Position numbers and translations under genes: made by a program. Below the pieces are notes generated by a model. That model was not told where the DNA came from. It saw nothing but the letters and a program-made list of their open reading frames with translations, and did no database searches. From a virus (lineage: Duplodnaviria; Caudoviricetes), in IMG/VR virus record IMGVR_UViG_3300046490_000065, positions 1-64,000 of that record: a stretch of 64,000 nt of DNA. One strand, given 5' to 3'. Of the stretch, positions 3,394-21,234 are shown in pieces. Position 1 is the stretch's first letter, and each line of letters opens with the position of its first letter.

Positions 3394-3587
3394 TCTCCTC
3401 CACCTTTCCTTACCCCCGGCTCCGGCGCCGCGTCAATCGCCTCGCGCAGCGAATGGTACAGCCATTCTTTCCCCTTCCTCGGCCGCGCGATAATCCTCCC
3501 ACTCGCCGTCACCCCATACCAGTGCCGGTGCATCACCACCGCCTCTATCCGCTCCAACTTGTCCAGCCTCTCTGTGTCCGTCACCAT
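3390..3587 (-). CDS. hypothetical protein
   Basis: Operon packing with SD. Confidence 0.55.
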   Translation of the reverse strand: MVTDTERLDKLERIEAVVMHRHWYGVTASGRIIARPRKGKEWLYHSLREAIDAAPEPGVRKGGGE

Positions 3588-3976
3588 ACCTCCGGATCCT
3601 CCTCCACCACCTGCCCATCCCCCACCCGCTCCACCCTCGTCTTCACCACCATACGCTTCAGCCGCCCTGCCCGCCTAGGCTTCACTTCCGCCGACGCGGC
3701 ATCAGAAACCCCAACAACGTCCACCACACCAACAACCCCAACACTACCCAGACTCCCGTCATCTTGAACGTCCTCCACTTCTCTTGTAGACACTTCACCA
3801 GCCCCACGCTCCCCCACCGGACCTGCCCCTGCCACCCCACTCCCCACCGGCCTCCCTCCTCCCTCCGCACGCTCCCTGTCCTTATCCCACAGCCGACTCC
3901 CACACCACCGACACGTCTTCGGCTCCTTCTTCACCCCCCACCAGTTCTTCTTGCACCGCTTACAGAAATGCCACAT
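3581..3976 (-). CDS. Zn-ribbon protein, first gene of leftward operon
   Basis: CKRC...CRWC at N-terminus. Confidence 0.65.
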   Translation of the reverse strand: MWHFCKRCKKNWWGVKKEPKTCRWCGSRLWDKDRERAEGGGRPVGSGVAGAGPVGERGAGEVSTREVEDVQDDGSLGSVGVVGVVDVVGVSDAASAEVKPRRAGRLKRMVVKTRVERVGDGQVVEEDPEVW

Positions 3977-4020
3977 TATTTCTTATTTATCGCATAATAG
4001 GAAATAATAGTCAAGAGGTT
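3976..4020 (-). promoter_or_regulatory. leftward promoter-like element with overlapping AT-rich inverted repeat
   Basis: Minus strand reads AACCTCTTGACT, identical to the 12-mers at about 21200 and 40363; imperfect IR TTATTTCTTATTTAT-CGC-ATAATAGGAAATAA lies directly before ATG 3976; no clean -10 at 17 bp. Confidence 0.55.
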
Positions 4021-4341
4021 TCTTGAAATATTTTCTACCTTATATATAGGGCCGGATGGGGTTCAATCCTGTTTCCGGCACCCGTCGTCCCGGCACCCCT
4101 ACCCCCTGGGCACTGTCCTACAGCTACGCGCGAGACAGTGCCGACCGCTACGCGCGAACTGTCGCGCACACACATGCGAGACACACGTGCCTCCCCACTG
4201 TCCCGCACACGCTCGCAGGACGTTGCTGAATCCGCCGAAAACGCACCAAAATGCCCGCATTCGCAAAGTGCTGAAAACGCGGCAGTTAGCGAAATAACTT
4301 GCATTGCCCGCCAGGGTGCCGCAGTATTGTGCTGCAAGCAA

Positions 4342-4990
4342 GTGGCGGACAGGAACCGCCGCCTAGGGAAAGGCCGAAAGGCGCTGGTGAGCAGTAGGGA
4401 AAGTATCCCCGAACCAATCAGCCGATAGGCGGAGGATGGAAGCTGATAGTTTGCGGAGTAAAGCCCACACAAGTCCTGGATTCCCCACTGCGGGGATGAA
4501 GCGGAGAGAACGGCAAGACTAACGGCGATGGTTCTGGCAATGAGCTAAGGATCTGGGCGTAGGGTCTGGAAGCATTGACAACTGAATACCGATGGACCTG
4601 GAGAAAACCTGCGGCACACACCGTAGGGGTAATGACCACTGGCCAAACGGAGCCTGAGCGGACTAGCGAACTGAATGATCGGGTAGCTGTTAGGGCCGGC
4701 AGAGTAGAGCATGGACGGCCAAGAGACATGGCGTAGACTGCCGGTACTGGAGATAGAATCTGATCGCGGGCTGGATAGAGCACCACTGATCGTAACCCAG
4801 GTGAAGGAGATGGGCTGATAACCCATGCCGGTCCAATGTTGGACGGGCGAAAGGGATCGAGCAATGAATTGAATGGCTTGCGGGGAGTACGGGTGGAGCA
4901 CGGCTATGCCGAGGAAGCACATCCGACACTCCCCGCATGACTACCAGACGGCTGGAGAGACATACTCCAGTCGCCCGGTGGCCATAGGCC
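4342..4990 (+). ncRNA. candidate large structured non-coding RNA or long leader
   Basis: No credible ORF; purine-rich; many stems (GTGGCGG/CCGCCGC, CCGCCTA/TAGGCGG, CCTGCGG/CCGTAGG, CCGGCAG/CTGCCGG, TGCGGGGAGT/ACTCCCCGCA, GGCTGGAG/CTCCAGTC) and a GCC-GAAA-GGC tetraloop. Confidence 0.5.
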
Positions 4991-5006
4991 AACAAGGAGA
5001 ACTACA

Positions 5007-5420
5007 ATGGCAGCTAACGTGATGTCCCTGAACTATCTGCGCCCTGGCTTCGCGGTCTTAACCCCGATGCCTACTCCCACCGTGGAGACGCCCAAACCCG
5101 TTGAGGTGAAGGCCAAGACGAAGACCGCTCCCAAGTCCGTCCGTAATTGGCTGGCCGAAGCCGAGAACGCTATCAGTCATGCGATGGAACTGTCCAAGGA
5201 TCAGCGGTTTAACGCCGACCTGACTGCGGCATGGGGTGCCGTGCTCAAGGCCCAGAACACCGTCCTGCGGGCTGAGAATGGCACACTCCCGCTGGTCAAG
5301 TCCACGGGGATCGCTTGCGAGTTCTGCGGGAAGGATCTGACTGCGGCCGAGATCCAGGCCCAGACCGAAGCTGGCGGAGAGATCGAAGCCATGTGCGATG
5401 CTTGCGCCGAGGCGGTGTAG
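5007..5420 (+). CDS. hypothetical protein with C-terminal Zn finger
   Basis: AAGGAG SD; CEFC...CDAC. Confidence 0.75.
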   Translation: MAANVMSLNYLRPGFAVLTPMPTPTVETPKPVEVKAKTKTAPKSVRNWLAEAENAISHAMELSKDQRFNADLTAAWGAVLKAQNTVLRAENGTLPLVKSTGIACEFCGKDLTAAEIQAQTEAGGEIEAMCDACAEAV

Positions 5421-5769: not shown

Positions 5770-5830
5770 GCCATTGGCCCACCTAGATGGCGTTGATGCG
5801 ACAGCGCCATCGAATGGTCCAAGGACCACT

Positions 5831-5868
5831 GCCTGTGGAGCACGGCTATGCCGGGGAAGCACACAGGC
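5831..5868 (+). promoter_or_regulatory. structured leader motif, second copy of the element at 4879-4937
   Basis: 29-nt core is 28/29 identical to 4893-4921 and is closed by a different stem, GCCTGTG/CACAGGC. Confidence 0.6.
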
Positions 5869-5893
5869 TAATCAACAACATAGGAGCACTATC

Positions 5894-6259
5894 ATGTCCA
5901 CAGTGAGCGTTACCCCCACCGGAAAGCCCAATGGCGTCGATGTCATGGCCGCCACGTTCGCCCAGAAACAGGCCGAGATCGGCGCCATCAAGGCCAAGGC
6001 CACGGAGTCGGAGCTTGCCATGGCCGCCGTTATCGCCCAACTCAAGGCGGAGAACGAAGCCCTGAAGAAAGGCAAGGTGGCGGCCGGTGTACTCTCCGTC
6101 AAGGTCAGCGAGAAGGGCGCCATCAGCGTCTACGGCCTCGGCAAGTTCCCGGTGACTCTGTACCAGGAACAGATGAACCGCCTGCTGGACCACGCCGACT
6201 CCATTCGGGAGTTCATGAAGACGAACGCCAGCCAGTTATCCGTCAAGTCGGCCAAGTAG
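5894..6259 (+). CDS. conserved hypothetical protein (possible PC4-like nucleic-acid-binding domain)
   Basis: KVSEKGAISVYGLGKFPVTLYQEQ motif; AGGAG SD; the fold is a guess. Confidence 0.7.
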   Translation: MSTVSVTPTGKPNGVDVMAATFAQKQAEIGAIKAKATESELAMAAVIAQLKAENEALKKGKVAAGVLSVKVSEKGAISVYGLGKFPVTLYQEQMNRLLDHADSIREFMKTNASQLSVKSAK

Positions 6260-6401
6260 CTCAGTCCTGAGCGGGACTGTCCGGGTGCTCTGTGAACGAC
6301 AGAGCACCTCATAGGCCGCTCAGTACCACCCAAATCCGGTCCAATGTTGGACTGGCCTATCGGCTCGGGTATGGCCTAATCCGGGCTTTTTCCGCTTCCT
6401 C

Positions 6402-7547: not shown

Positions 7548-7784
7548 ATGACGGACCTGATGTGGTGGGACTATAGCGACCTGAAGGCCAACGTGACGGC
7601 TGCCATTGCCGATGCACAGGCTGCGCTGGCCGACGATACGGAGATGAGGGAGGCGCTGGAGATCGCTCTCCTTGAGGGGGATGGCGGCATCGACGTATGC
7701 CCGTCATGCGGTGGTGGATCGCTCCGCAGTAAGTGCGAGGTGTGCCACATGACTGGGTACATCTTCCTCCGATCTATTCAGTAA
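7548..7784 (+). CDS. small Zn-finger protein
   Basis: CPSCGGG...CEVCHMTG (DnaJ-like CxxCxGxG pattern). Confidence 0.6.
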   Translation: MTDLMWWDYSDLKANVTAAIADAQAALADDTEMREALEIALLEGDGGIDVCPSCGGGSLRSKCEVCHMTGYIFLRSIQ

Positions 7785-7894
7785 CTCGCAGAGGACAGCG
7801 CGTCGTGATGATGCTCTGTAATGCGGCTGGACGGTTCCAAGCCCGTCCGCATTCGGTCCAATGTTGGACCGTACTTCAACACAGGAGAACCTTG

Positions 7895-8071: not shown

Positions 8072-8894
8072 ATTCATCTCGCTCAAGGAGCCGACCAAGT
8101 ACGGCTACATCTACGACTCGGAAGCGTGGAGCACCGGCACTCGCTTCTGCATGTCCCGCCACTTCCAGCAGTGTGAGACGTATGGCGACGTGCATGAGAA
8201 CGGCAATTACATCCAACACAGCGGCGAGTGGACCGTCCAAGTGGAGTTCTTAGCCGACTACCTCGCATCATTGGCAACCTACATCATGGCCAACCCCGGC
8301 GAAGAGACAGACAAGTTGCTCCATCACGTGTCCTACGACGTCACACGCCGGCCTTCGGATGCGTCCATCGCGTTCGCCGCTTCTGTGAAGTTCAAGTCTA
8401 CGGTGGACTCGGCCGGCGAGGCGACTGGCTACGAGAAACATCGTCGGTGGTTCTCTACGGATGAGAAGAAGGTGTCCGCCAGCGAGTCCAAGCGCTACGA
8501 CAAGCGCTACACCGAAGTCGATAAGCAGCACGATGGCTCGCCGGATGCCATCTATCGGATGCTCATTCCAGAGTACGCCGATGGCTTGGAGTTCTACACC
8601 TACGCCGATGCTATCCGGGACTGGTGCCAAGCCGACCCGGACCATCAGCGGCCGTACTTCTATGGCCACGCGGCACAGTTCTTGAAGTGGTTCGATGGAG
8701 ACACCCGTAAGGCTGCGGATTTGCGGTGCGCCTACAAGGCATGTCTCAGCCTTGCACTGGCCCACCAGCATCGCGCCGAAGCCGAGTGTATGCTCCACAA
8801 CCTCCACTGGCCGCCGAAAACGGAGGTTCAGGAGAACGGATTAACGGCGGAAGAGAACCGGACGGCGGCATCGGAGGCAGTCGATGCGGCCTAA
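8061..8894 (+). CDS. hypothetical protein
   Basis: GGAGG SD, long ORF. Confidence 0.75.
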   Translation: MRHKFISLKEPTKYGYIYDSEAWSTGTRFCMSRHFQQCETYGDVHENGNYIQHSGEWTVQVEFLADYLASLATYIMANPGEETDKLLHHVSYDVTRRPSDASIAFAASVKFKSTVDSAGEATGYEKHRRWFSTDEKKVSASESKRYDKRYTEVDKQHDGSPDAIYRMLIPEYADGLEFYTYADAIRDWCQADPDHQRPYFYGHAAQFLKWFDGDTRKAADLRCAYKACLSLALAHQHRAEAECMLHNLHWPPKTEVQENGLTAEENRTAASEAVDAA

Positions 8895-9162
8895 CTGGAC
8901 CATCAGGCGCACGTCGCCGACTCCGCGAGAGCGGATCGAGATGATGCCCTATGGATCCAGCGAGCAGATGGAGGCGGCGGACAAGTGGTTCCGTCGCTTC
9001 ATGAAGCTCTGGCTGGAATCGGGGCCATACACCGAGACGGGCCGCTGTGAGTGGCTCATGAAGGCGTTGTACCGAGCCTACACGGTCCTGCATAACAATG
9101 ACATCTGGTATCAGGCCCGGCGTCGATGGAACTACGACCGGGCGGAGGAACAGCGCTCATGA
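8884..9162 (+). CDS. hypothetical protein
   Basis: Overlapping operon packing. Confidence 0.6.
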   Translation: MRPNWTIRRTSPTPRERIEMMPYGSSEQMEAADKWFRRFMKLWLESGPYTETGRCEWLMKALYRAYTVLHNNDIWYQARRRWNYDRAEEQRS

Positions 9163-20827: not shown

Positions 20828-21209
20828 CGACATCATCCACCATAATGCGCTCTGCGCCAAGTGCGGTTGCTCTCAGACGTTGCCTGTTGAGATACAGGAG
20901 TGTACGTGCCCATGCCACCCCGATGGCCAGGGATCCCGCGAATACAGGGCAGGCTACCGTGGACCCTTCTCGGAAGACGTCATGGCGCACCAGCGGGAGA
21001 TGAACCGTATCCAGTCCGGCGTAAACGAGATCAGTCCAACATTGGACCGGATCCACGCTGCCGACACTGAACTTCTCGATTGGTTACAGGAACAGATAGT
21101 AGACACCATCTATCTGGATGACGGCCGAATCATCGATGTTTGCGGCGGCAACTTGCGGGTTGCTATCGCCGTTGCAAAAGCCAAAAACCCGTCGCAAGAA
21201 ACCTCTTGA
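20823..21209 (+). CDS. hypothetical protein
   Basis: ORF in operon; CTCPCH. Confidence 0.55.
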   Translation: MDDIIHHNALCAKCGCSQTLPVEIQECTCPCHPDGQGSREYRAGYRGPFSEDVMAHQREMNRIQSGVNEISPTLDRIHAADTELLDWLQEQIVDTIYLDDGRIIDVCGGNLRVAIAVAKAKNPSQETS

Positions 21210-21234
21210 CTTGCCGATTTTTTCGCTGTAAACT
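21206..21234 (+). promoter_or_regulatory. sigma70-type promoter
   Basis: TTGACT-N17-TAAACT upstream of dnaN. Confidence 0.8.

Follow-up and report, generated by a model that had tools for sequence, protein, structure and literature searches.

A gene-free stretch ahead of the early rightward operon of an uncultivated phage holds a conserved RNA core (positions 4573-4802, + strand), and its + strand fold is under selection: in three lineages the base pairs are retained through compensating changes, beyond what controls produce. From sequence comparison, the core appears to represent a new RNA family, known to date from three lineages within one small group of uncultivated phages. The phage record, rated complete in IMG/VR, is 94.6 kb long, and its bases 1-64000 constitute the window, the whole stretch of 64,000 nt analysed here. 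An earlier note on this DNA had proposed a structured RNA of ~650 nt at 4342-4990. The proposal holds for a core of ~207-230 nt and for a hairpin cluster on its 3' side, but not for the 5' 230 nt (z +0.69). The claim of a functional structured RNA on the + strand is borne out by covariation in the three lineages and by strand-specific folding.

The gene-free gap, its relatives and the 5' part of the leader

Positions 3977-5006 form a 1030-nt gap without a credible gene, which is larger than the stretch originally marked and separates a leftward operon from the early operon that runs rightward. It is flanked by a minus-strand gene (3581-3976) and by the + strand gene 1 (5007-5420). The leftward genes beyond 3976 encode a NUDIX protein, a DUF7694 protein and small unknowns, whereas the genes from 5007 on run rightward over tens of kb. 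Pfam and PHROGs gave no functional clue for the neighbouring proteins. The gap sits at this strand-switch point, where the cumulative GC skew reaches its minimum. As the earlier note had described, the stretch is poor in open reading frames and rich in purines. Between 4230 and 5010, each of the three + frames has 9-16 stops comprising all three kinds, and the longest + ORF in the gap has 53 aa. Because all three stop codons are present in every + frame, recoding cannot rescue a frame, and stop-codon recoding is ruled out. The composition of 4342-4990 is G 222, A 175, C 152 and T 100 (61% purine), with a GC skew of about +0.2 and an AT skew of about +0.3.

The left part of the gap has features of its own. 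Positions 4050-4298 comprise ~250 nt of C-rich DNA with inverted repeats between two divergent promoter-like sites; a word resembling a tRNA T-arm stands near its start (4058-4070) and is also present in the relative L032. This C-rich stretch could be an operator region or the remnant of an attachment site. A 17-nt word ending in TTGACT is found at 4009-4025 (minus strand) and again at 21195-21211 (+ strand), where the TTGACT at 21206 is the -35 element of a promoter-like site, TTGACT-17-TAAACT. The copy at 4009 faces leftward, and the predicted start of the leftward operon falls within a few nucleotides of its ATG (3976); its message is possibly leaderless.

Relatives were reached by protein look-ups with the downstream genes, which led to short metagenome contigs. 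The whole control region is contained in two contig types, L015 (eight near-identical contigs) and L032, which share the layout of the window: leftward genes, ~1 kb without real genes, and then a homologue of gene 1. The DNA alignment between the window and L015 is confined to window positions 4573-4797, with 77% identity. Identities (%) are given below in the order window-L032 / window-L015 / L032-L015.

Core: 89 / 77 / 78
5' leader part: 57 / 55 / 63
3' leader part: 78 / 54 / 47
Gene 1: 61 / 56 / 65
Gene 2: 78 / 72 / 76

The core is thus the best-conserved stretch of a 2-kb neighbourhood, above the adjoining genes. Wider searches added no member to this set. Neither blastn of the leader nor tblastn of gene 2 against 50,697 phage records returned a homologue or a further homologue, respectively. 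Exact and degenerate core motifs found none in IMG/VR, the JGI metagenomes or GTDB, apart from one match in an archaeal MAG that the covariance model rejected. Motif searches with the gene-1 start and the spacer yielded no further homologues, relatives of gene 1 and gene 2 sought in IMG/VR added none, and the 90% clusters of the flanking and antisense ORFs hold the window's own strain only. In the distant relatives L003 and L004, whose AAA ATPase is 51% identical, the RNA is absent by both blastn and the model; in the IMG/VR contig L003, the ORF-free stretch upstream of the AAA operon (4020-5060) carries a tRNA array. Among further lineages, the P0002 type has 875 nt upstream without a called gene, the P0123 type has 870 nt upstream, and the P0001 type ~100 nt.

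Reading of the sequence places a putative early promoter at the left border of the leader, with the transcript start predicted near 4334. The features of this part are as follows.

4299-4327, + strand: putative early rightward promoter, with TTGCAT (4299-4304), a 17-nt spacer and CAGTAT (4322-4327)
4335-4572, + strand: variable 5' leader part, purine-rich and U-poor, 55-57% identical to L032 and L015
4342-4362, + strand: 5'-proximal hairpin, recurring in L032
4373-4382, + strand: hairpin with a GNRA loop, recurring in L032
4573-4802, + strand: conserved structured core, defined by identity, RNAalifold model, column-shuffle null and the fit of L032

A consensus promoter scan left 4299-4327 unflagged. 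An equivalent promoter-like layout occupies the same relative place in L032 (TTGACA-17-CAGTAT) and L015 (TTGACA-17-CATAGT), and we infer from these sequences a promoter at 4299-4327, its start and transcription itself. In each of the three lineages, ~240-275 nt separate the predicted start from the core, and the leaders contain 14-16% U and 34-37% G. Comparison of the 5' part with L032 revealed no conserved structure (energy z +0.69; 8 compensated pairs against 8.6 expected). In L032 and L015, the core is directly preceded by a second structured domain of ~180 nt, with an energy z of -4.3 and 8 compensated pairs against 3.4, and this domain is shortened by deletions in the window.

Architecture, covariation and strand of the conserved core

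The consensus structure of the core has 53 pairs in nine helices and was derived by RNAalifold from the window and L015 only. Helix P1 closes a domain of ~207 nt, within which the hairpin P2 is followed by a long rod (P3-P4) that leads to a junction with two small hairpins (P5 and P6) and a long arm (P7-P8-P9).

4596-4600/4798-4802, + strand: P1, closing the core domain of ~207 nt
4608-4612/4623-4627, + strand: P2, a hairpin
4628-4642/4783-4797, + strand: P3, part of the long rod
4651-4656/4767-4772, + strand: P4, continuing the rod after an internal loop of 8 x 10 nt
4658-4659/4666-4667, + strand: P5, a small junction hairpin of the RNAalifold model
4671-4673/4680-4682, + strand: P6, a small junction hairpin of the RNAalifold model
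4687-4691/4752-4756, + strand: P7, start of the long arm
4693-4702/4738-4748, + strand: P8, in the long arm
4715-4721/4729-4734, + strand: P9, in the long arm
4643-4650, + strand: unpaired strand, largely conserved, one lineage differing at two positions
4703-4714, + strand: unpaired strand, largely conserved, one lineage differing at two positions
4773-4782, + strand: unpaired strand, invariant in all three lineages

Between the window and L015, 16 of the 53 pairs differ, ten on both sides and six on one side, and none is broken. When the 3' partners were slid by 1-3 columns as a control, 0-1 compensated pairs and 26-43% pairing remained. Since the structure had been derived from the same two sequences, we also shuffled the alignment columns within conservation classes and refolded them (n=300). 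The consensus energy of -56.3 compares with -37.7 +/- 5.0 in these shuffles (0/300 as low), and the ten compensated pairs compare with 4.2 +/- 1.9 (1/300 as many). L032, which was found afterwards, scores 251.5 bits with a covariance model built without it. All 53 model pairs are standard in L032, so that every pair is formed in all three lineages; relative to the window, nine paired columns differ in L032, amounting to two double and five single pair changes, all still paired. P1 is a clear example, as its two arms pair across 200 nt with a different sequence in each lineage (ACCUG/CAGGU, GUCCU/AGGAC and ACCCU/AGGGU).

The helices differ in how much they tell. P4, P5, P6 and P9 are weakly informative because no both-side change occurs in them among the three lineages, and the inner junction (P5, P6 and P9) is either invariant or redrawn by a fold of all three sequences. 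The consensus fold also differs from the single-sequence minimum-energy fold, and the covariation statistics are thin, as they come from three distinct lineages only. Every helix listed in the earlier note is present in the sequence where it had been placed; those at 4608/4627 (P2) and 4696/4744 (P8) are part of the model, whereas those at 4342-4495 are unsupported. Its short recurring words are likewise present, among them GGGAAAG, which occurs twice in 4342-4990 against 0.2 expected (2/300 shuffles).

The strand of the element follows from folding and from substitution patterns. Against 200 shuffles, the 207-nt core folds with z -2.49 on the + strand (2/200 as good), compared with -0.82 on the minus strand (42/200). 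The whole 649 nt also fold better than shuffles, with z -3.85 on the + strand and -4.08 on the minus strand (n=20 each), and in 150-nt windows strong folding is confined to 4801-5025 (z -3 to -4.5), with values of +0.65 to -1.6 across 4351-4800. In each sequence the model contains 4-7 G-U pairs; read on the other strand, these would turn into A-C mismatches. Together, the G-U pairs and the strand-specific fold scores point to a + strand RNA. An antisense protein gene would instead be read from the minus-strand ORF at 4545-4922 (125 aa), which is called in public assemblies, and gene callers place 171-187-aa minus-strand 'genes' in the gaps of L015- and L032-type contigs. Both the window and L015 indeed have antisense frames free of stops along the whole core, and their alignment is gapless (E 2e-10). 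They share only 38% amino-acid identity, however, despite 77% DNA identity, and the core substitutions between the window and L015 fall 27/22/19 on the three codon positions (p = 0.40), with neither periodicity nor a third-position excess. The core alignment includes single-base indels, and the pyrimidine-rich minus strand is stop-poor by composition alone. Outside the core, the antisense ORFs upstream show no relationship from one lineage to another (E 4.6). A search of 5.8 billion proteins with the overlapping 148-aa ORF on the antisense strand (4418-4864) returned no homologue, and Pfam gave no match for the antisense reading. A coding explanation is hardly credible on these grounds, and we conclude that the element is a + strand RNA and not a gene. 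The antisense 'proteins' of 125-187 aa annotated over this RNA in public assemblies are spurious.

It is also very improbable that the stretch works as DNA, be it an origin, an operator array or a packaging site, or is a fast-evolving spacer with incidental hairpins. Such readings would suit its place at the strand-switch point and skew minimum, the copy of a genome-wide palindrome that it holds, and its 5' third without conserved structure. They fit poorly with compensating changes in helices whose arms lie 30-200 nt apart, with the G-U pairs and strand-specific fold scores, and with a core that is 77-89% identical between flanks that are near random.

The 3' hairpin cluster and the early operon

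The 3' part of the leader (4803-4991) is a strongly folded cluster of hairpins that ends 2 nt before the Shine-Dalgarno sequence of gene 1. The consensus fold of 4803-5010 for the window and L032 has an energy of -60.3 kcal/mol (z -4.8 against column shuffles), with little variation between the two.

4810-4814/4822-4826, + strand: hairpin H1, overlapping a three-codon mini-ORF
4810-4818, + strand: mini-ORF AUG-GGN-stop, in all three lineages (L032 2421-2429; L015 ~802-810)
4831-4844, either strand: copy of the 14-bp palindrome GTCCAAYRTTGGAC, a genome-wide repeat
4879-4937, + strand: long hairpin H3, a 10-bp outer stem (4879-4888/4928-4937) enclosing a module at 4893-4921
4950-4957/4965-4972, + strand: hairpin H4, replaced by another hairpin in L007/L008
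4979-4983/4987-4991, + strand: hairpin H5, pairing via both-side changes in L032, L007/L008 and L009, with covariation over five contigs
4994-4999, + strand: Shine-Dalgarno sequence AAGGAG of gene 1, with ATG at 5007
5007-5420, + strand: gene 1, opening the early rightward operon

The mini-ORF has a purine-rich stretch in front of it and stands a few nucleotides 3' of the core in all three lineages. The palindrome, of which one copy had been noted in the stretch, occurs in more than 20 copies within the window (239-62941), in spacers as well as genes, and in more beyond it. At the place in the leader, L032 has a copy with one mismatch and L015 has none; the palindrome is not specific to the leader RNA. 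The copies at 4831, 6339 and 7856 are spaced by 1508 and 1517 nt.

The 29-nt module enclosed by H3 (4893-4921) is repeated at 5835-5863, and each lineage repeats its own leader module in the spacer between gene 3 and gene 4. In L032, the outer stem of H3 is identical to that of the window, and the enclosed module is replaced by a module of the L015 type. The gene 3-gene 4 spacer itself (window 5770-5893, + strand; compare L009 630-756 and L015 1826-1941) contains three hairpins, whose stems are wholly different between lineages yet still pair, and the single-stranded linkers are identical. The third of these hairpins shares its module with the leader hairpin of the respective lineage. Hairpin modules at comparable places are known from the nut/boxB sites of lambda and the RNase III sites of T7. 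As in those systems, a module is found here both in the leader and in an intercistronic spacer, its stems differing in sequence with the pairing kept. The likeness concerns the 3' hairpin cluster and not the conserved core; it differs in that the module varies and its position is kept, and no evidence of an N-like protein or of RNase III was found here.

The ribosome-binding region of gene 1 and its first ~17 codons (4994-5060) are near-invariant, including synonymous sites, among the window, L007, L009, L015 and L032. The overall amino-acid identity of the gene 1 protein to L032 and L015 is only 30-35%, and a near-invariant start in so divergent a protein suggests a constraint at the RNA level on the start region. 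Between the core and gene 1, no hairpin resembling an intrinsic terminator, with a U-run behind its stem, was found, and the core would therefore be co-transcribed with the operon.

Further along the early operon, a Twister-P5 ribozyme matches the full model at 7787-7846 (+ strand) with 46.5 bits, above the gathering score of 37.6. Located in the spacer behind a gene that ends at 7784, directly before the palindrome copy at 7856-7869, it would cut the early polycistronic transcript. No twister reaches the gathering score in the fetched stretches of L015, L016, L025, L032 and L033. After gene 4, positions 6363-6391 (+ strand) form a GC-rich hairpin (6-bp stem, 12-nt loop) with five U behind it. 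This is a candidate intrinsic terminator within the early operon, which the consensus scan missed because of the loop length. The 121-aa early protein encoded at 5894-6259 (+ strand) ends in ~80 aa that place it in a very large family, whose proteins have ~83 aa and no Pfam domain; the family has at least 7,981 members at E<=0.001 among 8,000 candidates scored, and it is also present in bacterial chromosomes, for example beside dapF on a 90-kb contig.

Known RNA families and the possible role of the leader

Rfam 15 contains 4227 models, including GOLLD, ROOL, OLE, HEARO, raiA, 6S, RNase P, tmRNA, riboswitches and ribozymes. None of them matched window positions 3900-5100 or the L015 leader at E<=10, nor the L032 leader at the gathering score, in line with the earlier note's remark that the RNA could not be assigned to a known family. 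ARAGORN detected no tRNA in the 64-kb window, and the earlier note puts the tRNA array of this phage beyond the window's end; an origin from a tRNA-like or degenerate tRNA sequence was rejected on the Rfam and ARAGORN negatives. The idea of a protein sponge of the CsrB/RsmZ type, which had been raised for this purine-rich RNA with its GGA motifs, also fails, as ANGGA is not enriched over dinucleotide shuffles in any lineage. The ten ANGGA motifs counted in the leader of the window, about as many as had been reported, compare with 7.0 +/- 2.5 expected (45/300), and the counts at composition level extend to L032 (7 against 6.9) and L015 (9 against 8.3). The sole PrrB_RsmZ match is weak (17 bits against a threshold of 44) and lies at 8868-9002, outside 4342-4990.

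We favour, tentatively and at somewhat less than even odds in our own estimate, a cis-acting leader RNA that controls transcription of the early operon, of the antitermination or anti-Rho type. Positions 4335-5006 would be the untranslated 5' leader of the early rightward operon, made as a + strand transcript. The core would act in cis while the operon is being transcribed, folding ~240-270 nt behind the promoter and then acting on the elongating polymerase or the nascent transcript. Transcription and expression could thereby continue through ~670 nt of untranslated RNA into the long early operon, and the hairpin cluster at 4803-4991 may serve as a processing and stabilising 5' structure of the gene 1 message. 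That the core stands in the same place in all three lineages, with a conserved promoter-like site on one side and gene 1 on the other, argues for a role in cis. Rho loads on C-rich, G-poor RNA, and the leader has the opposite composition; we infer that its composition avoids intrinsic terminators and is the reverse of a Rho loading site.

The closest analogue would be the put RNAs of phage HK022 (putL and putR), which work in cis in processive antitermination and render RNA polymerase terminator-resistant with no need of protein factors. The putR site is ~270 nt away from the PR start, and its effect extends over at least 10 kb (PMC9378689); the corresponding distance between the predicted start and the core is ~240-275 nt. 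Each is a structured RNA on the same strand as the long operon that follows it, put shortly after a phage early promoter and the core shortly after a putative one. They differ in that put is ~70 nt with two stem-loops, whereas the core is three times that size (207 nt, 53 pairs, 8-9 helices), and in that put is present once per early operon, whereas the core is found in only one of the two divergent operons; the two share no similarity in sequence or structure. It also speaks against a cis role that terminator-like sites downstream are no more frequent than in shuffles, and the two-domain RNA of ~410 nt in L032 and L015 resembles a free-standing ornate RNA more closely than it does a simple leader.

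Such a free-standing RNA is the main competitor. As a best guess, we rank the cis role first and a released, trans-acting RNA nearly as likely, although the latter is in itself rather unlikely. Cleavage of the mRNA, for instance by RNase III at hairpin H3 (4879-4937), would release the leader as a stable noncoding RNA of ~0.5 kb. This RNA would contain the core and, during takeover, act on a factor of the host or the phage. A large multi-helix core with a variable periphery, and with a second domain in L032 and L015 (z -4.3), would fit this. The layout of a conserved plus a variable part recalls GOLLD, which, like ROOL, is a large phage-encoded structured RNA of unknown function with one conserved and one more variable part (PMC12286853). 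GOLLD and ROOL are stand-alone RNAs of 580-800+ nt, usually near tRNA islands, whereas the core is fused to an mRNA leader in a window free of tRNAs. H3 forms a duplex of ~20 bp with interruptions, and its inner module is found again in an intercistronic spacer; the RNase III sites of T7 early mRNA are duplexes of this kind. The core is moreover better conserved than the adjoining proteins. On the other side, the core is always fused to the leader of gene 1 and an RNase III cut at H3 is putative, and the neighbouring proteins match no family that would identify a partner. The lack of a terminator-like hairpin before gene 1 is also why the cis, co-transcriptional role ranks first. A riboswitch-like sensor is improbable. 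The loops at 4643-4650 with 4773-4782, and at 4703-4714, would then form a pocket for a metabolite or signalling nucleotide, whose binding tunes early-operon expression to the state of the host. Unpaired strands that are almost unchanged amid covarying helices are the usual signature of an aptamer, and the core sits in a predicted 5' leader. An expression platform is nevertheless missing, as there is no downstream terminator-like hairpin and the Shine-Dalgarno sequence lies outside the predicted structure; no Rfam riboswitch matches at E<=10, and the start codon is set apart from the core by ~200 nt of variable hairpins. Still less probable is a new catalytic RNA, self-cleaving or of another kind, with a part in processing the early transcript alongside the twister 3 kb downstream. 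The twister above gathering score on the same transcript and the largely conserved junction nucleotides would favour it, and self-cleaving ribozymes reportedly (Weinberg et al. 2015) tend to cluster in bacterial and phage genomes. The core matches no ribozyme family, however, and with 207 nt is far above the size of small self-cleavers; the absence of the twister from the fetched stretches of core-sharing lineages further indicates that the two are not linked.

Beyond the cis-acting leader that we favour, it is conceivable, though doubtful, that the core and the upstream domain of the sister lineages constitute a new class of large functional RNA for host takeover, for example an RNA that reprograms RNA polymerase, Rho or the ribosome, or a new ribozyme. 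If true, this would be more than an ordinary regulatory leader. Few large structured phage RNAs are known, and GOLLD and ROOL still lack a function. The core occupies a defined regulatory position, between the putative early promoter and the first early gene, so reporter and in-vitro transcription assays could address its function directly. Should its target be the transcription machinery, the core would represent a second and much larger solution to the problem that put solves in 70 nt; if it is released, it would found a new family of ornate phage RNAs.
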